Positions 30,121-48,480 of a stretch of 64,000 nt of DNA are shown in pieces; position 1 is the first letter of the stretch, and every line of letters starts with the position of its first letter. Origin of the DNA: Desulfomonilia bacterium (GTDB taxonomy: Bacteria > Desulfobacterota > Desulfomonilia > UBA1062); assembly GCA_050014195.1 (NCBI GenBank), contig JBEKDT010000007.1, positions 96,001 through 160,000 of the forward strand, read 5' to 3'. The notes below the pieces were generated by a model. That model did not search any database, was not told the DNA's origin, and saw only the letters and a program-made list of their open reading frames with translations. The position numbers were made by a program, and so were the translations under genes.

Positions 30121-33100
30121 CTACAACACTCGTTCCATGAATTCACCAAGGGGGTGCCTTAAAGCCTCCGCAGCCGCAACAAGCAAGGTCTTCAGAGTAC
30201 TTCTCCCGCTGTCAACGCCATCGATTGTTTTGAGCAACGCAGGCACAGATATGCTTGGAGAGTAAAACTGAAAACGGTTCTGAGCATGCCTACGCCAGGA
30301 ACCAGCGAAGCACCGAGCAACGTGTCGATTGAAAAGCACTTGACGGGCGACACTTTTGTCGCTCATAAGCCCTGAAGTCAAAAAAGCTTGAAATTGCAAA
30401 GTTTTTTCGGGGGGTAACATACCCTGTAATAATCGGGCTGCAGCTCCACAACGCATGGTCGATGGAGATGCAGTGTCAATGGTGGCTGGTTGAAGTAAAT
30501 CAGCAGGTAGTGAGGCCCCCTTGAGGAGCAACCGAATATTGTTCGTCAGAACAGCTTCTTCACCGAGGAGTTGGTTACTCACATCGAGCCAGAGCTTCAA
30601 GTGAGCTAGCAAATCTGCGCCTGTACAAATAACACCAGCACACAGCAGACCAAACCAGCTTTCAGGAGCAATTGGAAAACTTGATTTGGGTACATCATCT
30701 TGATCCAGCAGGGTCAGGCCCTGTTGCATGTTAACTGATAACTCAGCTGTAGCTCTGTCGAAGGCCAAAAGAGTCTCAATGAAACCAGCCCCTGCGCCAG
30801 TGGAATAAGCCAATGCGAGTTTTGCTTCAATCGCAAACCATCGAACAACGAAGTACCTTGAAGTCTCCAACACTTCCAATTCCTGAGCAATCCCTGCCGG
30901 TTCCTTCTCCAATGTCGAAACTAGGTGCAGAATTTGAGCTCGGGTTATCTCGCTACGAGCGACTTGCCCGGGCTCGATCTTGGAGACTTTCAGATCGGGT
31001 GAGCTAGCATATCCTGGCTCAAACTGTGGCTCGATCTGAGTTGTCTTCCACAGGCTATTCTCGATTGTTCTGTAAACCGCAAAAGCTGCTCGTTGCACTG
31101 CTTCCCATCGTTCATCATCTTCCACCGCAGCCTCTGCTGGTAATAACAAGACAGCTTCTGCCAATAGCCTTGCCGCGATGGCCTGGTCTCCTGTAAGTGA
31201 TATTGCTAACGCTGCATCCACCTGAAGTCCGAATTTGGTTAGCGCAAAGGAACCTGGCTGAACGGAATTTGCAGCGTTAAGGAAGATTTGTCCTGCTTTA
31301 TCCCATTGTTTGAGTCGAGCGGCACTTATGCCAGCTCGTCGATAGGCAAACGGGTCGAGAGTAGTTCTGCTGACGGGGTCATTGGTCAACTGATCCCAGA
31401 TCTCAAGAACGGATTTATCATCTTGTGCGTGAAAAAGGACGTTGGCTCGCTGCTCCATGAGCACGACCGACGGACCGAATGCCATCTCGGCTTGTTCAAG
31501 TACAGAGAGAGCCTCTTCACTTCGTTTAAGGTACTCTGTCAGAATGATTGCTCTGGCTTTCGCAGCTTCTCGGCCAAATCGAGGTGAGGCTCGTCGCTTC
31601 GCGTACTCTTCTATACGTTCAAATAGCTCTATCCAGGGATTCCAATCCTTAATTTGTTCATGTGCAGTGGCCCATGCACTATGTACGAATGCACCTAAGC
31701 TCTGAACGAGAGGCCATTCCAGCATTGCATCAAATTGCTGCCTAATGTCTTCTGTTGCAACGTTATCCAACCAGTGCAACAATTCGTCGAGGTTGCTCAA
31801 CTCGCGAATGCTTCGACTGGCATAAAGAAATATTACTTGGGTTATTGTTCCACCTTTGGGCATACCGTCTTCTGCATTGGCATTTTCAAAAAACTGTATA
31901 CCCAAATTTGAGTGAGCATCTAAAATCTCCCTCGGTAGCGTTGGAATTCCCATGATGGCCTCAAGGCGAAATTTGAGCGGTATCTTGGAATTATCTGTAA
32001 AGCTTGCAGAGTGCCACATCATCGCGTGGCTTATGGCCTTGGCCATAGGGTGCTGAATCCGCTCAATGTCATCTTCCCATCGTGCACAGATTTGAGGTAA
32101 GCACTCTGTATTCAACGTCAATGCAACCCGAAATTGTAACCCTCTCAGAATCGCCCCGGCCATCGCATCATCCGTGATGGATTGTCCGGTCTCGAGTGCG
32201 ACAAACGGCAGCCATAGGAGTTGTCGCTCAACTTCACATTTTGCATCTTTACCATCTATTAATTGGAGTCGTATCGCTGTCTGGGCGAGCCGTCGAGGTT
32301 CACCTCCAATGTATGCGTGGAAAAGAAGTGCGGCAGCCTCAAATGAGTCAAGTGTGTGTTTGGCTAGGATGGCGTCATGCAGGCAGATGTGTGCCCATTT
32401 GCGTTTCTCCGGAGACCAGACATCTATCGCGACTCCGCTGAGTAGCGCCGTAGTTCGAAACCACTGACCTTCGACCAGCTCAAGCCATTTCCCAGTGAGA
32501 TTGTCGAGGACATCCCCCCCGTTTGTAAGCCCCTCAACGGCCTCAGCCAGTCGAATCGCAATTGATCTGTGCATTAGTATGGAGCATTCAGAAACCATAT
32601 AGACAAACTCAGCAATAGGGCCAGGCACAGAGTCGCTGAGTAGCTGTCTGGCCATCTGATGAACTGAAGTCACCGCCGATGATTGTGTGACGAGGTCAGT
32701 TGCATTAGGTCTTGGCCAGTTGCGAGCAGCAATTTCGGCTAACCGAACCTGGACAAGTTTAGGATGGCCTCTCGTCCACGCCGTAATGAGAGTGCTCCAG
32801 TACTTGGCAATCTCATGTGGACAACCGTGTTCGATGCACAAAGTCTCAGTTTCATCGGAACTGAGCTCAGGTACTTCGAGAAGCTCGATGTCGTTGAAAT
32901 CCTGTACAATGGCCGAGTCGCTAGTTCCCCCTCGTGCGGTAAGAAGGATGCCTCGCCCTGAAGAACAAGCTCGATGCAAGACCAACGCAAGCGAATCTCG
33001 ATAGACACGGTGAGCCGACGGGCTGATATCCAGGTCATCGATAATAATTAAACTTGGGCAATACCCACTTTCGATTTGGCCTGCTAGTGCGAGAAGCACG

Positions 33101-34188
33101 CTGTCGACTTGGTCGACCATTCTCTCGGTTAGATTGATCCACCATGCCTCAGGGCACAGAGTTGAAGTAACAAGCTGTGCAGCTGTTGTCTTACCCTTGT
33201 AAACTGTACCAGTCAGCAAGACGACCTTGCGATGCTTGACCAAATCCTTCAGACGATGCGTGAGTGCAGGTCTTCTAAGTAGAGGCTCGGGCGGTCTTGG
33301 TGACTTCTCAAGCAAGAGATTAAGTAATCCCAATCCAGGCTGTACTTTAAAAATCAAAGCTTGGAGCTGATCCACCGCCACCGGTAGGTATATAGTGCTT
33401 GCTGTTTCGACCTGGCGAAGCAAATCGCCTCGGGTCAGATACCTTCTTGCAAGCGAGGGCTCCACAATAATCTCCCAGAAGCGGGACTCGAGATACTTTC
33501 GCACGGTTGGAATTAAGGCCAAAGAGCGTCGTTGATTGCTAAGGAAGACTGAGATACGGTCGTCAACACTTCGTTTGACTACATCAAGGTCCGGCTGATT
33601 GGTGAGCCAATGAAATCTTTGGATAAGACGTTTCTGGGCATGTTCTGGTGTTGTAGAAGTCAGGAACGCCTGTAACGGGCTGCTTTTATCCAGTTTTGAA
33701 ATAAGGTACTTTATCACAACAATGGCTAATTCGAGATTAGTCTGAGCTGCTCGCCAAACCTCAATGCCTTTTAAACCATCAAAGTTAGCATCCTGTTCCA
33801 TAGCAATGGAGCTGGTGGTCAGAAAGTGAAAGTCGATTTGTCGGTTCGATTCTTGGCTGGACAGGGTCCAGAAGTTCTCTAACGCCTCATGCGCTTTGGC
33901 GGTACCTAAAGAGATAGTCCCCATGTTCCGCTTGACTTGAACTGTGATAGCGGAATCAGTCCTGACAATGTCGAAGTCTTCTGCGCCTTCAAGGTAGATG
34001 ACTTCATCTGCATCAACTAACCGGAGCCATGCATCAATAGACCACCAAGCTTGATATACGTCCCCATAAGTTGAAGATACAGCTTGCCGCCGAGGGTCCC
34101 CAGCTAGTTGTTCAGGAAGACCTGTGATTTTTGCAAGAATATCGTCAATGTCTGGCAGACCACCAAGTCTAGATTCATGGTCAGGCAT
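30121..34188 (-). CDS. PD-(D/E)xK nuclease - STAND NTPase - helical repeat protein (Avs-like)
   Basis: N-terminal YQ..EGAEDFD..VQVK nuclease motif; Walker A GTVYKGKT; Walker B LIIIDDLD; GHP motif; long TPR-like C-terminus. Confidence 0.75.
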   Translation of the reverse strand: MPDHESRLGGLPDIDDILAKITGLPEQLAGDPRRQAVSSTYGDVYQAWWSIDAWLRLVDADEVIYLEGAEDFDIVRTDSAITVQVKRNMGTISLGTAKAHEALENFWTLSSQESNRQIDFHFLTTSSIAMEQDANFDGLKGIEVWRAAQTNLELAIVVIKYLISKLDKSSPLQAFLTSTTPEHAQKRLIQRFHWLTNQPDLDVVKRSVDDRISVFLSNQRRSLALIPTVRKYLESRFWEIIVEPSLARRYLTRGDLLRQVETASTIYLPVAVDQLQALIFKVQPGLGLLNLLLEKSPRPPEPLLRRPALTHRLKDLVKHRKVVLLTGTVYKGKTTAAQLVTSTLCPEAWWINLTERMVDQVDSVLLALAGQIESGYCPSLIIIDDLDISPSAHRVYRDSLALVLHRACSSGRGILLTARGGTSDSAIVQDFNDIELLEVPELSSDETETLCIEHGCPHEIAKYWSTLITAWTRGHPKLVQVRLAEIAARNWPRPNATDLVTQSSAVTSVHQMARQLLSDSVPGPIAEFVYMVSECSILMHRSIAIRLAEAVEGLTNGGDVLDNLTGKWLELVEGQWFRTTALLSGVAIDVWSPEKRKWAHICLHDAILAKHTLDSFEAAALLFHAYIGGEPRRLAQTAIRLQLIDGKDAKCEVERQLLWLPFVALETGQSITDDAMAGAILRGLQFRVALTLNTECLPQICARWEDDIERIQHPMAKAISHAMMWHSASFTDNSKIPLKFRLEAIMGIPTLPREILDAHSNLGIQFFENANAEDGMPKGGTITQVIFLYASRSIRELSNLDELLHWLDNVATEDIRQQFDAMLEWPLVQSLGAFVHSAWATAHEQIKDWNPWIELFERIEEYAKRRASPRFGREAAKARAIILTEYLKRSEEALSVLEQAEMAFGPSVVLMEQRANVLFHAQDDKSVLEIWDQLTNDPVSRTTLDPFAYRRAGISAARLKQWDKAGQIFLNAANSVQPGSFALTKFGLQVDAALAISLTGDQAIAARLLAEAVLLLPAEAAVEDDERWEAVQRAAFAVYRTIENSLWKTTQIEPQFEPGYASSPDLKVSKIEPGQVARSEITRAQILHLVSTLEKEPAGIAQELEVLETSRYFVVRWFAIEAKLALAYSTGAGAGFIETLLAFDRATAELSVNMQQGLTLLDQDDVPKSSFPIAPESWFGLLCAGVICTGADLLAHLKLWLDVSNQLLGEEAVLTNNIRLLLKGASLPADLLQPATIDTASPSTMRCGAAARLLQGMLPPEKTLQFQAFLTSGLMSDKSVARQVLFNRHVARCFAGSWRRHAQNRFQFYSPSISVPALLKTIDGVDSGRSTLKTLLVAAAEALRHPLGEFMERVL

Positions 34189-34713
34189 ATCTATAATCTT
34201 TCTCTAATACCAAGGGGCGGGGTGATGTTCTCGTATTCTGAATACCGGTACGAAAACCTGCAATGGAGCCACCATTGAAATAATACAACATTAATGGTGT
34301 TGAGGAGAGATCTTTCATCTCATTTTTCACCCAAAAAATAACTAAACAGCACTTCTGGAACAATCCACCATTATGAACCGAAGTATAATTGAAGTATATC
34401 CGTATATTGAGTCCGTGGCAATATGCTATTATAATTCATAAACAACATGGTTCTAGTGTAATACTTGTGAGCAGGATGAAGTAATAATAGCTCGTTGACC
34501 TTGACTGGAGATAATGTGCCATACACAACGCTTCCCCCATACTGAATATTTCTTTTGATAATCTCTACAAGTCGATGAACAGGATAGCCTTTAGATTTCC
34601 TGTAAAATATTGCTCATAATTTGAGCTACATCGCATTATTTCAGAATCACCTGCATGATTGCATCTCCCCAAAATCGTGATGGAAGAGTAGGTGGAGAGA
34701 AAATGCATTAATA

Positions 34714-34741
34714 GCTATACAAAAGGTATCTTTCCTATAGC
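34714..34741. other. Candidate tyrosine-recombinase crossover site (11-6-11)
   Basis: GCTATACAAAA-GGTATC-TTTCCTATAGC; arms 9/11 complementary; directly upstream of the recombinase. Confidence 0.45.
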
Positions 34742-34777
34742 GATATGTGTTATAGTGATTATCTGAGAGGGGTTGGA

Positions 34778-35839
34778 ATGGGTGAAAATCAGCATCAAAT
34801 CGCTATACGAAATAATTCTTATGAGATCAGCATCCCTGAAGGTGATCAGGACACCTTATACTTCTGGCTGAAAAATTATCTCGAGCATGCCGTCACTACC
34901 GCAGAGAACTCCCGCAAAGTTCAGGTGAGGGACCTATCGCTCTTCATCCGGTTCGCTGAAAAAGAAGGCGCTCTCATGAGATCGGTGTGGACTCCCAGGT
35001 TATCCCGGGCGTTCATAGACTTCCTGAGGACAACCCTCAGGTCCGGAGGACAACGGTACTGGGCAGACAGGACTATCAACCGGATCCTGGCGCACGTGAA
35101 GACCTTTGCGAAGTGGATCCACAAGCTTGCTCCTTTTCCGCTTGGGAACCCCATGGGGAATATCAGGCTCATGGGGGTAGGGGAGAACCTCGATATCGAA
35201 CGGGCATTCTCCGATGGCGAACGTCGCAAGCTGCTCGATGCTGCAGACCTTCTGCCTTCGGTCTGGGGGAAGAGTAGGGACCGTAGGAGAAATAAGAATA
35301 CTGAACCTGTGGCCAGGCCCAGGAGGAAGTACGCACGCCCATGGCGCAACCGGGCCATGATGTATACCTTGATCGAAACCGGCATGCGCAGGGCTGCATT
35401 AGTGAATATCAATATCAGTGACATTGACTGGGATCATCATCTTATCATTACAGTAGAGAAGGGTGGGTATTCCCATTCCTATTCAATCAGTGATCAGGGA
35501 TTGAAGGCGATCCTAGATTATCTGGCCGATGAGCGTGAAGTGGATAAAGGAGAGGGATTGAATGCTCTGTTCCTGCCGGCAAGTACCATCCGGAACAGCA
35601 GTGGCCGTCTTACACCCCTCGTGGTCAACCATGTATGGGACGAGGTGTGCACTCTTGCCCAGGTCTCAGGTAAAACACCGCACTCTGCCCGGCATGCTAT
35701 GGGGAGGCACATTATTGAGAAGACCGGGAACATTGCTGCAGTCCAGAGGCAGCTTGGGCATAGGAATGTAGCTTACTCGGTGCAATATGCGAGGGTGTCA
35801 AATAAAGAGTTGAGGGATGTGCTAAATAATCGATCATGA
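34778..35839 (+). CDS. Tyrosine recombinase (XerC/D-like integrase/resolvase)
   Basis: ETGMR, EKGG, PHSARH, LGH and terminal Y catalytic residues. Confidence 0.92.
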   Translation: MGENQHQIAIRNNSYEISIPEGDQDTLYFWLKNYLEHAVTTAENSRKVQVRDLSLFIRFAEKEGALMRSVWTPRLSRAFIDFLRTTLRSGGQRYWADRTINRILAHVKTFAKWIHKLAPFPLGNPMGNIRLMGVGENLDIERAFSDGERRKLLDAADLLPSVWGKSRDRRRNKNTEPVARPRRKYARPWRNRAMMYTLIETGMRRAALVNINISDIDWDHHLIITVEKGGYSHSYSISDQGLKAILDYLADEREVDKGEGLNALFLPASTIRNSSGRLTPLVVNHVWDEVCTLAQVSGKTPHSARHAMGRHIIEKTGNIAAVQRQLGHRNVAYSVQYARVSNKELRDVLNNRS

Positions 35840-35926
35840 ATCCTTTGTCATGCTTAACTCTGTTAAACGATCCATTAATGCGTATGTAGGAACATTGAAT
35901 AATCTAATGGTATTCTATTAGTTCAT

Positions 35927-37537
35927 ATGCTTTACGACCATATAGGCTATCTATATGTAAGGAAACAGAATGGTCAAGCAAGGATGAAGAAGAGCGGTGA
36001 TTCCAAGAAGATTGAACGTCGTTTCCGTGAACTTCACACTACTCTGTGTGCTCTGATCGATAAAGATCCAAAGTTGGCAATCAAAGCTGCTCATGCGTTA
36101 ACTCCTGATGATGTTTTAAATGAACAAAACATCAATGCAATAAGGGCAGGGATACTGATTGACGCAGGAATTTATGGGAATGATGTTCAAACCGTAGATG
36201 AAGGTATTGCCTTATATCAATGTATTTTGGATAGCGTTCCAAACAGAGGCGACTTCCAATACTGTCTGGCTAACGGACTTGTAGGAAAGGCTGATCTCCT
36301 CTCATACTCAGGCCCAGAATGGTTCTGCTTAACAGCAGAACTGCGACGAAGGGCTAGATACCTATACCGATTCGCAGGAGAAGAAGAGATTGGTTCTGTT
36401 ATTGCCTCACGATCACTCACCAATCTTGGTAATTCCCTAATAAAAGCTTACCGATTTATCGAGGCATACGACTGTTATCTGAGTGCATTAAAGCATGACA
36501 CCTCTAATGGAGTTGCTCTGACTGGTGCTGCAAGAATTCTTCTGCGATTCGCCAACGAAGGCACTGGGGACCGTGGTGCCTTACTCGCTGTTGCTGCTCG
36601 ACATTTACAAACTGCGCGAGAGAACCCTGACAGGATTCGTGAGCTAGCTGGAGAGCGAGCGTTCAGAGAATTATCTAAATTGATGAAGACCAAGATTGTT
36701 GGTGGGGCTGTGCCGGACTTGGCTACGGCTACTGATTACCAGCTGTTTGTGGCAAACCATCGTTTGGCCTTGGCTCCAACCATTGAGGGTCTCGACCTAT
36801 CTATGTCACGGTGGGATTCGCTTCGCATCAAGAGCATTACCGAGCATATGAACACCGAGGATTGTATTCCTCCAATCTTCGCGATGTTCAATGTACTCAA
36901 ATCTGACTATTTAACAGCTCGGTTCCTAGCATATCTGGCTTTAGAAGGTGAACTTAACGACAGTGGTAAATACTCCGACACACTGGACTATGCAATCTAT
37001 GGCATGCGGTCTTCGGTTCTTACACTTGCCCAGAGGGCCTGTATGGACATCCTCGACAAGATTGCAGTTGGAGCTAGCGAATATCTTGGTCTCCCAGGCA
37101 ATTATAGGTCAATCAAATTCCCGACGAGATGGTTCCTAAATCCAAATGATGAAGAGCAACTAACCTGGCAATCTGATGTATTCGACGAAATTAAATTAGG
37201 GAACACAGCTTTGATTGCTTTATCTGAGGTCTCTTATGACCTTCAGAAGAGCGGATTCCTGCAGGAGAAGAGGTCGATTCGAAACACATCAACACACCGT
37301 TTTACGGTGCTGCATGACCTTGATAAGAGAACAAGCCGAAAGTGTCGATACATTGACCACTATGTCATGGAAGCTTTCAAGGACCAGTTGATAGAAACTC
37401 TCCAACTTACGCGAGCTGTTTTATTTTACTTTGTCGAAATGATCAATCTTCGTGAGAAACGTCTATCAAGAGATGGGGTGCTGCCTCTACACGTCCCAGA
37501 TCATGACTGGATCCGGGGCGAGGATGATGAGCCGTAG
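35927..37537 (+). CDS. TPR + HEPN (LA2681-like) protein
   Basis: TPR-like NLGNSL..AYDCY..AL; DILDKIA; RNTSTH (RxxxxH) HEPN motif. Confidence 0.8.
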   Translation: MLYDHIGYLYVRKQNGQARMKKSGDSKKIERRFRELHTTLCALIDKDPKLAIKAAHALTPDDVLNEQNINAIRAGILIDAGIYGNDVQTVDEGIALYQCILDSVPNRGDFQYCLANGLVGKADLLSYSGPEWFCLTAELRRRARYLYRFAGEEEIGSVIASRSLTNLGNSLIKAYRFIEAYDCYLSALKHDTSNGVALTGAARILLRFANEGTGDRGALLAVAARHLQTARENPDRIRELAGERAFRELSKLMKTKIVGGAVPDLATATDYQLFVANHRLALAPTIEGLDLSMSRWDSLRIKSITEHMNTEDCIPPIFAMFNVLKSDYLTARFLAYLALEGELNDSGKYSDTLDYAIYGMRSSVLTLAQRACMDILDKIAVGASEYLGLPGNYRSIKFPTRWFLNPNDEEQLTWQSDVFDEIKLGNTALIALSEVSYDLQKSGFLQEKRSIRNTSTHRFTVLHDLDKRTSRKCRYIDHYVMEAFKDQLIETLQLTRAVLFYFVEMINLREKRLSRDGVLPLHVPDHDWIRGEDDEP

Positions 37538-37620: not shown

Positions 37621-38511
37621 CTATTCATTCCAGAGGCTGATCACAGCATTCAGAAAGATATCACAATTTGCATTCGACCATGACGTGTGTGAATTATCAC
37701 GAAGAAGATAATATTGCTCATTTGCGCACACCAGATTGGTCTTATCTGCTTCAGTTTGAATCCAGTCAATTGCATTAACAAAGCAGTCTTGAAAAGAGGT
37801 TGTAAACAAATGATTGGGAACATTGTAAAGGAGGCCTTCAAGGTAGTACGAGGGAGCAGTACCTCCTTTGATGATGCCTTCATCTACAAGTTTTGAACGC
37901 ATATTCTTAAGAATTCGAACCATTGGTTTGAACCACCTTTTGGTACCTTGGTGCTTGGTTGTAAGGTTTGCAGAATGTTGTTTGGGGTAATTTGCAATAC
38001 TTATACCTTCAGAGGTGTAGAAACAGATTCCTTCATAGTAAAGTTGGTCATCTATACTTTTAAACCTGTAGTACCGTCGGTATTGAATTGCAGCAATAAC
38101 ATCAGCCTTTCGACGACTTCCATTAGCGGCAATGGCTATTGCTTTATTTCCGGCGAGAACATTCCGGCCATATTTGTCCTTAAGAACCCTTAACACATCT
38201 CGTTTGAAGTCGTTATACGTGTATGTTGCATCAGGAAATGTACCTTTATAAGCGTTCTGATCATCCGGAGATAACGCACTAAGGTCGCTTTGGAAACAAT
38301 CGTCTAGTTTAATTACAATGTCAACATCACTCTCAGCAAAGATATTTGTATCGTTCCCGTATGAGCCTTGAAGAAACACGGAAAAATTCTTGGCTGCATA
38401 TGGTGTATCAACAGCTACCAACACAGTCTTAATTGTATTGTAAGTGGAACTAGATTGAGTGACGGACCCTTGATGTGACCATGTTTCGAGTTGAGATTCA
38501 AGAATTGCCAT
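37621..38511 (-). CDS. cdnE: CBASS CD-NTase, CdnE-like
   Basis: [12 protein letters not shown]-terminus, [35 protein letters not shown]. Confidence 0.88.
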
Positions 38512-38525
38512 GGCATTTCTCCTGA

Positions 38526-39482
38526 TTAAAGTAAAATATTTTTAAGCTGGGCTTCTCGCGCAGCAAAAGATTCGCGTCCTCTCTGGCGCAATAAGTTTAA
38601 TTTATCTAGGTCATGTTCCAACAGATCGGTTGCCAGTTCCGGCTGATCGAATGTATCGCTGATACGAATAGTGGTGACATCCTTGAAGAGGACTTCACGA
38701 AGCTGATCCATCGATTGTGTATTGATCTCTAATGTTTTCTGTAATAACTGAACGCTAACAAGATTTCTGGCTATGCGCATTTTGAAGCTAGGTTTTGGTT
38801 CAGGATATATACCGACACCAACATTAACTGCTCGGATGTCTTTCCGTTCCTTTTGTAAACCTGAAACAGCTTCAGCAATCGCATACAGAGTTGGGTTATT
38901 TGCACAATAGCCCCCATCGAGGAGCTCAATCTTATCGCCTGTAGCTGTATTAACGATCTTTCTTTTGAAGAAAGGATATGCTGAACAGGATGCTTGTACT
39001 GCATCAGCGATGCTTACTCCAAATCCTGGTATGAATGTCCCTTGGCGGCCATGAGCTTGTTCAATACTTCCTTTAAAAATCATTGGTTTCTCAGTCATCC
39101 ATCTTGTGGTAACAATTCCAATCCTAGTTTTTACATCTTCAAAAGATCGATCGCCGAAGACCTCTTTGGCAAGTTTTGACAATTCTGCAGACCTTGAACT
39201 TGGAAAACTCTTTGCCATGACACTTGGCACATGCGTCTTATACAGGTTGTGAATTTCATCGATTTCATACCCTAGAGCAATAAGCGAAGCTATAATCGCC
39301 CCAGTGCTAGTTCCAAATACAAGATCAAATCGTTTATAAAGAGGACACTTGAGCATGCCCTCGATTTCTTTAAGGACACCCAGCGTATAGAATCCCTTTG
39401 CACCTCCACCGTCAAGTGCAAGTATACGAAAAATACCATCTCTTTGGTACTCGGCCGTCAATCCCGTGGTGAGTTCCCCCAT
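38526..39482 (-). CDS. CBASS patatin-like phospholipase effector (CapE-like)
   Basis: DGGGAKG, GTSTG and DGG motifs; 14 bp upstream of the CD-NTase. Confidence 0.9.
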
Positions 39483-39996: not shown

Positions 39997-40419
39997 CTAG
40001 GATCCTTTTTTCCCTTCTTCGAGACGAATTATTGAATCAAAGTGACCGGAGATCACTTTCTTGGCTCCGGTAATAAAAACTGGTGAAAGAGATCCTTCGT
40101 CTTCCCATTTCTTTAAAAATCCACCTAATGAATTACCGTTTGGATCTTTTACGATTTCCCATTGCTTTGTAGTTATTTCGTTTTTAGATTCTGCTTTTGC
40201 ATATTCATATGCTTTTTCCATATCGAGTTTCAGATTTTCTATTTCACTTTTATGGAGTGTAAAAGATTCTGTGGCCTTATCCATTAAGGACAATGCTTCA
40301 GCCTTTATTGCAAGATCTTGCTGGTCTGCTGTTTTATTAAAGGGCGCAATAGTAGAGCATGCGAAAATCATGGTTAAAATCCCAATTAGTAAAGAAAGCC
40401 TTATTACCTGTTTATTCAT
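39997..40419 (-). CDS. Hypothetical lipoprotein
   Basis: Signal peptide with lipobox IFAC; AAGGGGG RBS. Confidence 0.8.
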   Translation of the reverse strand: MNKQVIRLSLLIGILTMIFACSTIAPFNKTADQQDLAIKAEALSLMDKATESFTLHKSEIENLKLDMEKAYEYAKAESKNEITTKQWEIVKDPNGNSLGGFLKKWEDEGSLSPVFITGAKKVISGHFDSIIRLEEGKKGS

Positions 40420-40707: not shown

Positions 40708-41121
40708 ATGTCATCATTGGGAGAAAGGATTAAAGAGTTGCGGCAATCCATGGGATGGACACAAGATAGGCTAGCTCAAGAGGCTGAAATTAGTAAGAGC
40801 TTTTTGAGCGAAATAGAAAACAATAAAGTTAGCCTTAGTGGAGAAAATCTCCTGAAGATTGCCAATGTTTTGAACACGTCTCTTGATTATTTAATGAAGG
40901 GTAATTATGTCTCAAGTGAAAAAAAACCTTCAAAACCAATTGAAATACCAAGGGAATTATCAGAGTTAGCAGAAGACCTTTCACTATCCCATAAAGCTAC
41001 ACTTGCTCTACTAGAGGCACATAACTCTCTGATTGCTAGGAGAAGTGATAAAGAAAAGACTGAGATGACCAAGGATAATTGGAGGGATTTATTTGAAAAA
41101 CTAAAAGAATATTTAAAATAA
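40708..41121 (+). CDS. XRE-family HTH regulator (CapH-like)
   Basis: LGERIKELR..WTQDRLA..ISKSFLSEIEN..IANVLNTSLDYL; divergent from the CBASS operon. Confidence 0.9.
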   Translation: MSSLGERIKELRQSMGWTQDRLAQEAEISKSFLSEIENNKVSLSGENLLKIANVLNTSLDYLMKGNYVSSEKKPSKPIEIPRELSELAEDLSLSHKATLALLEAHNSLIARRSDKEKTEMTKDNWRDLFEKLKEYLK

Positions 41122-41123
41122 AT

Positions 41124-42164
41124 ATGGACAAGCTTAACAATTCAAAAATTATTCAAAAAATAGCTAGTGAACTCGGATTAAAAAGGTATCGAGATGGACA
41201 AAATGCGATCCGAGAGTTCTGTATACAGGAAGTTGAGAATATAAAAACCCAGTTTGGCTTAATTGATAATCTTTCAAAGCTGTTAGAAGTTGTAAGTTCT
41301 TTTCTAAGGATTCGCTTTGAAGAGGTTAATGATGATAATGATATTGAAGCCATAAGTAAGAAATATCTAGCCCAAGGAGAACTAAAATTCGCTGATCTCT
41401 CAAGGGAATTGGATGCATCTACTGATGCAGTAATGATTTGTTTGATGAAAGATAAAGTATGGAGATATTCGGCAGTAATTGATTGTAGAGGATATAAAAA
41501 ATTCAGGGCTTATTTTACTAAATGGCATGAGGTTGCTCACATACTTACAAGATCTCCTCAAACTTTTCTTTTTCACCGAACTCCTTATTTTAAGAGAGAT
41601 CCTGAGGAAATATTGGTCGATAGGATAGCAGGTGATTTAGCCTTTTATACTCCCCTTTTTCTACCCGAATTATTGGCAAGGACAAAAACTACGAAACGGC
41701 TTACATTTGATATAATAGAGGAAATCCGTGAAATTGTTTGCCAAGGTGCAAGTAGAGAGGCAACAATTCGAGGAGCTATCTCAAGAGCACCTTTCCCTCA
41801 ATTAATGGTTATTGCAGATTATGGATTGAAAAAAAGTGAAGAAAAAGAATTATCCTCGAATCAGGGATTATTATTTACAGAGGGGAATGGTCAATTTTTA
41901 CCAAAGTTACGAGCCGTTGATGTTATTGTAAATAAACCAGCTCTTAATATAGGTTTATGGATTCATAAGAACATGGAAGTACCACAAGAATCCATTATTA
42001 GAAAAGCATATGAAGAATCATCTCCAAATGAGATTTATCATAACCGCGAAAACCTAAGCTGGTGGAAACATTCCCGAGGGGGACAGCTTAATAATATATG
42101 TGTTGATGTAGAAGTTACAAAGATAGGCAGACGTGTCTATGCTTTTATTAGTATATGCCCCTGA
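41124..42164 (+). CDS. ImmA/IrrE-like Zn metallopeptidase (CapP-like)
   Basis: R..FTKWHEVAH (HExxH) and downstream EE; starts 2 bp after the XRE gene. Confidence 0.8.
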   Translation: MDKLNNSKIIQKIASELGLKRYRDGQNAIREFCIQEVENIKTQFGLIDNLSKLLEVVSSFLRIRFEEVNDDNDIEAISKKYLAQGELKFADLSRELDASTDAVMICLMKDKVWRYSAVIDCRGYKKFRAYFTKWHEVAHILTRSPQTFLFHRTPYFKRDPEEILVDRIAGDLAFYTPLFLPELLARTKTTKRLTFDIIEEIREIVCQGASREATIRGAISRAPFPQLMVIADYGLKKSEEKELSSNQGLLFTEGNGQFLPKLRAVDVIVNKPALNIGLWIHKNMEVPQESIIRKAYEESSPNEIYHNRENLSWWKHSRGGQLNNICVDVEVTKIGRRVYAFISICP

Positions 42165-42217: not shown

Positions 42218-42340
42218 TTCTATATAGATCGTGCCAATATTTATACTTCTGCATGAGGCCATGAAAAGTATAGATCTTATCAGGAGATAGAAGCTTTCCT
42301 TGGCGTGCTAGAGTACATGTTAATCGTAGTAACCTATACT
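42218..42340 (+). repeat. Diverged non-coding direct repeat, copy A
   Basis: Aligns with 48359-48480; shares the exact 21-mer GAGATAGAAGCTTTCCTTGGC. Confidence 0.7.
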
Positions 42341-42624
42341 TTCGCATATATATGCCGAAATTTTAAGAGATCTATGCTGTGGCGATCTATTCCTTAAGTG
42401 CAGATCTCATTCGAGGCTGTTGAAAAACTCAGGGGCGAATAAAGATAAAAATTTCGACCTCACAGAATGCCCGACATTAGATTTTTCGTGAAAGAGACTT
42501 ATGTTTTGATGGTTCAATTTGGGGATTTTTCCAACTTTTTGGAGTTTTTTGATACCCATCTAAAAGGTTTACTCTTCCAAACATAAGAGCCGTTAACGGA
42601 TAAAAAGCAAAAGGAGGCAATCTT

Positions 42625-43650
42625 ATGGGAGAGCTGTATGTAGGGTTGGATCTGCATTCAGTGAACACGTACGTGGGCATCATGGAAGGTGAAACAAAGA
42701 GAAGGATATACCAGAACAGGCACAGGAATGAACTAGGGGAGATCCTGCAAGCGCTGGAACCGTATCGATGTGAGGTAAAAGGGATCGTTGTTGAGAGCAC
42801 GTATAATTGGTGTTGGCTTGTCGATGGGTTGATGGATGCTGGATATGATTGCGTTCATTTGGCGAATCCAGCTGCAATGAAACAGTATGAGGGGATCAAG
42901 TATAAAGATGACCGTCATGATGCATTCTGGCTCGCTCAGCTACTTATCCTTGGCATCCTTCCTGAAGGATATATCTATCCCAAAGAAGACAGGCCGGTGA
43001 GAGATCTATTGAGGAAACGAGCGTTTTTGATGCGGCACAGGACAGCCAATATCCTCTCATGCCAATCGATGATTGAGAGGAACACTGGGTTACGAATATC
43101 TGGAGCTGGGATCAAGAAGCTCTGTACAGAGGACTTGAGGAAGATCTTCGCTGATGATCATCTATTATTTTCAGGGAAGATGAGTACATTCATCATCGAT
43201 GTCCTGGATCACCATATTAAGAGTATTGAAAAGATGGTGCGCAAGGTCTTGAAGATTCGCCCGGGGTTTGAGGATCTGCTGACCGTCACTGGCATAGGAG
43301 ATATCCTGGCGATGACCATCATGCTGGAGGTGGGGAATATATCCCGGTTCCCTGGGGTAGGCAATTTTTCTTCGTACTGCAGGTGTGTCAACAGCGTTCA
43401 TACCAGCAATGGGAAGAAGAAGGGTGTTGGCAACACAAAGAACGGGAACAAGTATTTAGCCTGGGCATTTATGGAAGCGAGCAATTTTGCCAGGATGCAC
43501 AGTGAACGGGCGAATGCGTACTATCAGCGCAAGTCCCGGGAGACGAATCCTATCATTGCGAGGAAGGCGCTTGCGAACAAGCTTTCCCGTGCGTGCTACT
43601 ACATCATGAGAGATCAGGTTCCTTTCAGGGAGGAGGCCTTGTTCTCATAG
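42625..43650 (+). CDS. IS110-family DEDD recombinase/transposase
   Basis: VGLDLH, VVEST, KDDRHDA, TVTGIG, SNGK..G..KNGNKYL, ALANKL. Confidence 0.95.
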   Translation: MGELYVGLDLHSVNTYVGIMEGETKRRIYQNRHRNELGEILQALEPYRCEVKGIVVESTYNWCWLVDGLMDAGYDCVHLANPAAMKQYEGIKYKDDRHDAFWLAQLLILGILPEGYIYPKEDRPVRDLLRKRAFLMRHRTANILSCQSMIERNTGLRISGAGIKKLCTEDLRKIFADDHLLFSGKMSTFIIDVLDHHIKSIEKMVRKVLKIRPGFEDLLTVTGIGDILAMTIMLEVGNISRFPGVGNFSSYCRCVNSVHTSNGKKKGVGNTKNGNKYLAWAFMEASNFARMHSERANAYYQRKSRETNPIIARKALANKLSRACYYIMRDQVPFREEALFS

Positions 43651-44120
43651 AATGGCTGGGGTGGTGAATCCGGAGAGACTGTTGGCTGACAACCAGTGTT
43701 TTTTGATTGATCCGCCACCCTATGCCCTAAAACTGAGATTATCCGGCAGGGAAGGATAATCCGTTTCTGATCCGCCTCTGGCATGAACCATGCGAGTTTG
43801 GACAAAGAGCCAAGGATTTTGAAATGAACATTTTGGACATGCCAGGGAACAGACGATTTTCTGGGGCCTGAAAATCAGGCCAAGGGTTACTAAGGCATTG
43901 GCTGTTGCTACGCTCCGAGATCCCTTTTGTCTCTCCGCTCCGCAACAGCCAGGCATGGCAACCTTGATCCCGATGGGTGACCGGTGCGGTTCAGGATAAA
44001 TGAATCGTAACCACATAAGAAAGAAATAACTGGTGTGGTATCGGAGATAGATAATCGTCCATGTTGGCGATACGGTAAACTCTGCAAGAGAAAAACGACT
44101 CTTGTATTGGGAGAGCTATT
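43651..44120 (+). ncRNA. Candidate bridge/seek RNA of the IS110 element
   Basis: Stem-loop 43659-43720 whose internal loop matches both halves of the insertion target; further hairpin 43899-43951; boundaries approximate. Confidence 0.6.
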
Positions 44121-44433
44121 TTCTCATTGACAGAACCTTTTAATGGGCAACAGCCTCTTCTGATACCTTCAAGACAGCTAAAGCACAGATGTCCTCACGA
44201 GATGTGCTCATGTATGACAAGGTCATTTCTAGAAAGATCGTTATATCGATAGCCAAAAAATAAGCTTCTGATGAAGCATAGATATCATTTGAGAACCTGA
44301 TTCGATCCCTTTCATAATGTTATATGATATAGTATCATTTAATTTAAATAATACCGATATATTACTGCGGTAGAACTTATGTAGGCTAATTTAAGTATCA
44401 ACAGTCAAGAACATTGGGATAAATTATTGTCAC

Positions 44434-48358: not shown

Positions 48359-48480
48359 TTCTATATCAACCATGCCACTAGTTATACTTCTGCACGAGGG
48401 TAAAAAATATAGATCTCATCTAGAGATAGAAGCTTTCCTTGGCTTTCTGGAGCACACGTTTATCGTAGATATCGATAGTA
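48359..48480 (+). repeat. Diverged non-coding direct repeat, copy B
   Basis: Aligns with 42218-42340. Confidence 0.7.

Follow-up and report, generated by a model that had tools for sequence, protein, structure and literature searches.

An IS110-family element, probably RNA-guided, inside the terminal inverted repeat of an IS1182-type MITE from a Desulfomonilia bacterium

The strategy of inserting into the inverted repeats (IRs) of another mobile element is already known from IS1383 and IS4321. One host element of this kind, IS1384, belongs to the IS5 family. IS1383 reportedly inserts into the inverted repeats of IS1384 in the work of Mueller, Lauf & Herrmann from 2001, and IS4321 and IS5075 are said by Partridge & Hall (2003) to lie in the terminal IRs of the Tn21 family. 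The target logo of IS4321 confirms the Tn21-family terminal IR (PMC11187229); the initial annotation of this DNA had likewise named the terminal repeats of transposons as targets of IS4321 and IS5075. In the IS1111 and IS110 elements tested in the seekRNA paper, the NCR RNA is needed for targeting (PMC11187229).

The window described here, a stretch of 64,000 nucleotides from a Desulfomonilia bacterium (contig JBEKDT010000007.1, positions 96,001 to 160,000), contains an arrangement that is very probably a three-layer nest: an IS1182-type MITE and then, in its right IR, an RNA-guided, site- and orientation-specific insertion of an IS110-family element. The features, in positions of the window and with the basis of each in brackets, are the following.

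42410..42412, no strand: left copy of the 3-bp target duplication (TTC) of the MITE (sequence and 3-bp duplications in genus relatives)
42413..42430, plus strand: intact left terminal IR of the MITE, IS1182-type (sequence)
42413..42549, no strand: the 137 bp (of 147) of the MITE body that precede the insertion point (64-88% alignment with C4, C9, C18 and the MITEs hit in L081, L124 and L125)
42542..42549, plus strand: split right IR, inner 8 bp, left half of the IS target (sequence)
42550..44147, plus strand: IS110-family element, 1598 bp (donor and target differ at the junction)
42561..42569, plus strand: left sub-terminal IR of 9 bp, set 11 bp in from the end (covariation with its right counterpart)
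42625..43650, plus strand: DEDD transposase/recombinase, 341 aa (catalytic residues align with IS621)
43654..43724, plus strand: predicted target-binding hairpin, seekRNA or bridge-RNA target loop (folding)
43675..43684, plus strand: putative top-strand guide, the complement of the outermost 10 IR bases, ending at the terminal base of the IR (sequence match)
43696..43706, plus strand: putative bottom-strand guide, matching the inner IR half and the core position (sequence match)
43973..43980, plus strand: candidate donor guide, a conserved stretch identical to the joined element ends (motif in 69 of 70 elements)
44127..44132, plus strand: TTGACA, candidate -35 box of a circle-junction promoter (sequence; only a weak -10 counterpart in the left end)
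44134..44142, plus strand: right sub-terminal IR of 9 bp, set 5 bp in from the end (sequence and covariation)
44148..44157, plus strand: split right IR, outer 10 bp, right half of the IS target (sequence)
44158..44160, no strand: right copy of the 3-bp target duplication (TTC) of the MITE (sequence)

The left terminal IR of the MITE at 42413-42430 is an 18-bp sequence, GAGGCTGTTGAAAAACTC, and excision in silico of the 1598 bp from 42550 to 44147 leaves a unit of 147 bp whose right end is the exact reverse complement of that IR, with TTC at both borders (42410-42412 and 44158-44160); two claims made beforehand, that removal of this segment restores the exact 18-bp IR and that a MITE of about 147 bp flanked on each side by TTC results, are thereby confirmed. 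The ends of the element at 42550 and 44147 are fixed because donor and target bases differ at the junction, and the insertion divides the right IR of the MITE into 8 and 10 bp. Since the genome was assembled from a metagenome, in which repeats can be mis-joined, the junction might be an assembly artefact or a chance arrangement, and locus L125, whose MITE is nearly identical to G000 C9:4692-4839 but has unmatched 3-bp flanks, is possibly an assembly join through two IS copies. For the window this explanation is extremely improbable: the element is a single copy in the source genome, the whole region is spanned by single contigs in three of the four sequencing runs (which may be the assembly's own source), the same junction occurs in another species of the genus (L081), a split of this kind happens to complete a random 18-mer in 6 of 20,000 trials even with the transposase and the duplication not yet counted in, and the independent insertion sites described below contradict it. 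A 184-bp contig of run X14 contains the empty junction at another site, where 42520-42549 is followed directly by CAACAGCCTC and then by different flanking DNA. The left flank of the MITE had no match among 51 other genomes of the family that would represent the empty site preceding the MITE, and neither an abutted-end circle nor an excision joint was present among the contigs of the four runs, contigs being a form of data that drops rare forms.

The IR of the MITE is common to the element at C3:13111-14949, whose 524-aa transposase reaches 311.7 bits with NF033551 (cut-off 270) and is of the IS1182 type, and the same IR type is found on IS1182 loci of related genomes; the proposed resemblance of this IR to IS1182 ends was thus well founded. 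Intact relatives of the MITE, the uninterrupted copies that the initial annotation had proposed to look for, are present in the source genome (C4, C9 and C18) and among genus relatives; of 15 genomes examined in the genus, 7 hold sequences related to the MITE. Exact 3-bp duplications occur at 8 of the 12 intact relatives in the genus and at 5 of 9 IR pairs in the source genome. Being short, non-coding and multicopy at unrelated sites with target duplication, these sequences are a genuine MITE family. In a BLAST comparison of the MITE with 29 IS1182 loci, the matches were of IR length only; the shared IR and the shared flank motif suggest that the MITE is mobilised in trans by the IS1182 transposase. 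A second MITE family, of 108 bp and with the same IR, has four copies in G000 (C1:77342-77449, C6:192031-192138, C10:107324-107431 and C18:1582-1689), all four with exact 3-bp duplications; several of its ends match the top-strand guide at 7 of 7 positions, yet no IS copy was seen in this family. Other remnants are an internally deleted IS1182 at G000 C8:10266-11195, with a 230-aa ORF and both IRs retained, and a truncated relative of the IS110-family element at G000 C17:55206-55418. At L188 (G003:C43) two MITEs separated by about 1.2 kb have the same 6 bp flanking them on each side, which suggests repeated targeting of a repeated site.

The MITE lies just downstream of a CBASS-like region (37621-39482, minus strand, and 40708-42164, plus strand). 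It includes a nucleotidyltransferase and a patatin lipase gene, a pair over the cut-offs of NF053871/NF053870 and recognised by PADLOC as cyclase and effector. Next to the pair, a divergent gene encodes an HTH protein (PADLOC capH, E 2e-14) and another gene a 346-aa product that has an HEVAH motif and no family match; the two look like a CapH/CapP-type regulator. The neighbours in this defence island (30121-37537 and 39997-40419) include a 1355-aa protein with weak LmuA/DUF4297 matches, a tyrosine integrase, an LA2681-like HEPN protein and a small lipoprotein with a PADLOC Csx23 match. A 110-bp intergenic repeat with many words resembling AGATCT, a type of motif also seen beside the IS1182 MITEs, is present at 42218-42329 and 48359-48468 with 81% identity, and also at G000 C7:82213-82266 and C1:128900-129003; it may be a gene-cassette boundary repeat.

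The transposase of the inserted element exceeds the cut-offs of PF01548 and PF02371 and scores 172.1 bits with NF033542 (cut-off 140), its residues D9, E57, D96, D99 and S261 align with the catalytic residues of IS621, and on these sequence features the element is assigned to the IS110 family in the broad ISfinder sense. The non-coding region, about 500 bp downstream of tnp against 75 bp upstream, has the IS1111 layout, and it matches both target strands at the sequence level, which is the IS110 criterion. IS1111 in the sense of Partridge & Hall is described as having sub-terminal IRs of 11-13 bp that lie 7 bp and 3 bp from the ends (PMC11187229). The window element departs from this geometry, with sub-terminal IRs that are perfect over 9 bp at 11 and 5 bp from the ends and longer only with a 1-base gap; the left and right copies covary among relatives (7.9 versus 6.5 of 9, 31 distinct pairs). 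Likewise, the GL-P----S(t)G motif of the IS1111 C-terminal domain is absent and RCVNSVHTSNG stands in its place; no transposase listed in the seekRNA source data carries the motifs of the window element. The nearest named transposase family is ISGsu4 (47% identity over 97%), which lies at the far end of the published identity matrix, where its neighbours ISShfr7 and ISShwo5 have about 15-23% identity to the first ~156 entries, including IS1111, IS4321 and IS1383 (PMC11187229). Owing to the deviating IR geometry and C-terminal motif, and to the ISGsu4 group being its nearest named relative, the element is not filed under IS1111 proper; it is best described as IS1111-like in layout without all the IS1111 criteria.

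The other copies of the element indicate where it lands. In a target-blind scan, metagenome contigs were searched with the right end of the IS alone as the pattern, and 31 loci were obtained; 16 of these are close copies, at least 85% identical over the last 60 bases, two of which repeat the window's own site, and together with the window and G007 the close copies represent 13 distinct sites. At 12 of the 13 the element adjoins the same base of an IS1182-type IR and the sequence runs on into its outer 10 bp, so that the refuting outcome named beforehand, other insertions at unrelated sequences, did not occur. Most sites come from a few related metagenomes and therefore do not form a wide sample, and only the right junction is available for 8 of the 12 IR sites. 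The remaining 15 of the 31 loci are distant relatives, none of them in an IS1182-type IR. Beyond the 10-bp IR half, the flank motif scores 3.75 of 5 at the 12 sites, against 3.68 at 19 intact IS1182/MITE ends and 1.50 in random sequence, and the sites are therefore true element ends. The insertions have one orientation and lack a target duplication of the IS, and all four copies with both flanks rebuild a MITE of 147/148 bp, three of them with a 3-bp duplication. In addition, a 24-bp left-end remnant of the element adjoins a MITE end in G002, and run X22 contains a further right end joined to an IS1182-type IR with a different flank. The exception among the 13 sites, L130 (82-85% nucleotide identity), lies outside the IR and has different guides, which match its own target poorly (1 and 3 of 7), a point that speaks against guide-directed targeting.

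These sites might also be copies of one event, if a single ancient insertion had produced a MITE::IS composite that was then moved as a unit by the IS1182 transposase. Such an origin would fit the six of 12 IR sites that carry the window's exact IR half, the IS1182-type outer flanks found at all sites and the occurrence of L080 and L124 in one MITE subfamily (88%). It is nevertheless quite unlikely as a general account, because IS right ends with at most one difference in 95 bases adjoin five IR variants and thus derive from separate insertion events, the MITEs hit are only 65-88% alike and were entered at both ends (in L081 at the opposite one), the MITE subfamily of the window has an empty member at another site, and the guides of the IS encode the IR; at most, movement as a composite explains some of the six identical-IR sites. 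Separate insertions into the IR are thus preferred here. The earlier proposal of an IS specialised on the ends of another IS family and its MITEs stands for the IR sequence and for the MITEs and does not extend to full-length IS1182 members: no insertion into an autonomous IS1182 was seen in 29 loci, a small sample, and 'another IS family' is hence established for the IR sequence alone.

In wider searches, the junction pattern was found only in the source genome among 401 genomes of the phylum, the left-end pattern had matches in 5 of 122 genomes of the class, and viral contigs contained no copy by either the left- or the right-end pattern. L091 is a 266-bp relic that has lost the guide region and has an unrelated left flank, and an odd end in L158, considered as a possible insertion, was rejected as a mutated IR. 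Among relatives with 50-68% amino acid identity (L002, L009-L079, L096, L102, L105, L117 and L136), many target a repeat of the type AGAC(C/T)|TGACCCC; the targets of other relatives are GATAACG|TGCCA or AGAAA|TGTCCT.

A hairpin is predicted at 43654-43724, directly behind the stop codon (-35.1 kcal/mol, z -4.9), and its outer stem is kept in the five relatives that were folded; in the free RNA fold the two guides partly pair with each other. The top-strand guide of the window element forms 9 of 10 pairs with its own site (one mismatch) and 10 of 10 with the L081 site, while the bottom-strand guide, starting 11 bases after it, matches the inner half of the IR; the top-strand match of IS1111 seekRNAs also lies 5' of the bottom-strand match (PMC11187229). 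The element very probably lands at one exact base of the IR because the guides spell out both IR halves, and the target specificity suggested in the initial annotation thus has a counterpart in the element's own guide region, which encodes that IR. All five exact matches to the guide-defined 16-mer in the source genome are MITE IRs.

The agreement between guide and target was also followed across the clade by a covariation test anchored on the conserved scaffold, in which the target was not used. Among 70 related elements with both ends, the scaffold pattern matched 36 (34 were missed) and gave 29 distinct guide pairs, which agree with their own targets at 4.76 and 4.79 of 7 positions, compared with 3.34 and 2.67 for shuffled targets; none of 5000 permutations reached these values, a result that is not a clean probability since the elements are kin and not independent. 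A guide search that was not anchored gave a weak signal (11.4 versus 10.6). The four IR-targeting elements have three top-strand guide variants; those of L124, L125 and L001 match their own IR variant at 7 of 7 positions each and that of the window at 6 of 7, and by sequence the three guide variants are seen to copy three natural IR variants. Targeting by protein or DNA shape, in which the IR or the bound IS1182 transposase would be recognised and the guide-like matches would be incidental, gains something from the shortness of the matches (7-10 nt each) and from a guide reading that rests on sequence; it is very improbable, given that the matches keep a constant place in the scaffold and vary in step with the targets of the different clade members, and that the NCR RNA is required in the IS1111/IS110 elements reported as tested (PMC11187229). 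Guidance by the hairpin RNA is therefore retained as the preferred reading. For the donor side, the candidate guide motif at 43973-43980 is present in 69 of 70 elements; a right donor guide near 44040 was considered and rejected, as it is not conserved in L001. The search of Rfam gave no match, and the promoter scan no signal above shuffles.

The left end of the element begins with TG in 69 of 70 elements and the right flank begins with TG in 63 of 70, a pattern that resembles a core common to both. At the core position of the IR insertions, CA or CG stands in the target, versus TG in the donor; all 12 right junctions keep the CA/CG of the target and all five left junctions keep the TG of the donor. 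With G:U/G:T wobble allowed, T-G-A, C-G-A and C-A-A are all possible partners of the conserved guide triplets UUG and UGA. In IS621, donor and target alike carry CT (PMC11208160, PMC11208158), and according to the seekRNA paper target duplication is not characteristic of either the IS110 or the IS1111 family (PMC11187229), for which reason the missing core, and with it the core mismatch, may be ordinary in this group.

The nest very probably arose in two steps. An IS1182-family transposase first inserted the 147-bp MITE, producing the 3-bp duplication, and the IS110-family element then entered the right IR of the MITE under RNA guidance. By analogy with the work on IS1111/IS110 elements, the hairpin would be transcribed and bound by the DEDD/serine recombinase, and its RNA would pair with both target strands so that the circular donor is inserted; strand exchange would be carried out by the DEDD/serine active site, whose residues are conserved. 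The IR may serve as a harmless multicopy landing site whose number another transposase, that of IS1182, goes on increasing. As long as the IS stays in place, the split in the IR probably holds the MITE where it is.

In a tree of 56 proteins, from which seven broken ORFs including L130 and L136 were omitted, the four elements that target the IR fall into a single clade (support 1.0) amid elements with other targets, which points to one branch having specialised through a change of its guides; support for the deeper nodes is poor and no ancestral target is claimed. Judged from guides and targets, the IR specialisation is recent and confined to one small branch, with the sister L130 and all more distant relatives having other guides and other targets. 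A broader interpretation, tentative and less likely to hold than to fail, is that a bridge recombinase of the ISGsu4 branch, apart from the IS4321/IS1383 lineage, independently became an RNA-guided hyperparasite of IS1182, with guides that track the IR variants and with wobble allowing donor and target to recombine without a shared core. If this were true, the element would represent a naturally occurring bridge recombinase to which the matched-core rule does not apply, and it would act as a natural check on an IS family. The core mismatch bears on whether the matched core of IS621 is general, a matched core being a limit on genome-engineering aims. Here guide, target and natural retargeting events are all readable from sequence, and the clade, with 70 elements having both ends and many targets, is a natural collection from which guide rules could be read for a branch of bridge recombinases that has not been studied.

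Among the known systems, IS1383 is similar in that an IS110/IS1111-type element has the terminal IR of an unrelated IS as its specific target; in the present case the target is an IS1182 IR, with copies seen in MITEs. IS1383 itself is placed together with ISEc11 within the IS1111 cluster and is separate from the ISGsu4 group (PMC11187229). The fixed position and orientation inside a foreign terminal repeat, the sub-terminal IRs and the 3' non-coding region are shared with IS4321 and IS5075, whereas the target family is another and the sub-terminal IRs are of 9 bp at 11/5 bp, not of 11-13 bp at 7/3. As in the IS1111 seekRNA elements ISEc11, ISKpn4 and ISPa11, the hairpin lies just past the stop codon with the top-strand match 5' of the bottom-strand one, relatives have undergone natural retargeting and the transposase falls in the range of 330-350 aa; in contrast to them, the window transposase has RCVNSVHTSNG in place of GL-P----S(t)G and the non-coding region is about 500 bp long (PMC11187229). 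The ISGsu4/ISGsu5/ISShfr7/ISShwo5 group contains the closest named transposases (47% over 97%), and L182, an ISGsu4-family element, shares its end layout and conserved non-coding motifs with the window element; unlike this group, for which no target or guide was found in the literature searched, the window contains a distinct element with an IR-reading guide. The catalytic residues, the two guides overlapping at a short core and the candidate donor guide recall the bridge recombinases IS621 and ISCro4, from which the element differs in its downstream guide RNA and reversed guide order and, with respect to IS621 with CT in donor and target, in having no core dinucleotide common to donor and target in the IR insertions (PMC11208160, PMC11208158). 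The literature search yielded no paper on an IS110/IS1111 element that inserts into IS1182 ends or into the MITEs that carry them, ISfinder, TnPedia and most subscription papers being beyond the reach of that search. In comparison with IS1383 and IS4321, what is new is the IS1182/MITE target, an ISGsu4-like transposase that departs from IS1111 in two of its criteria, and junctions without a core common to donor and target; IS1182 and its MITEs thus join the short list of mobile-element ends exploited by IS110/IS1111 elements.
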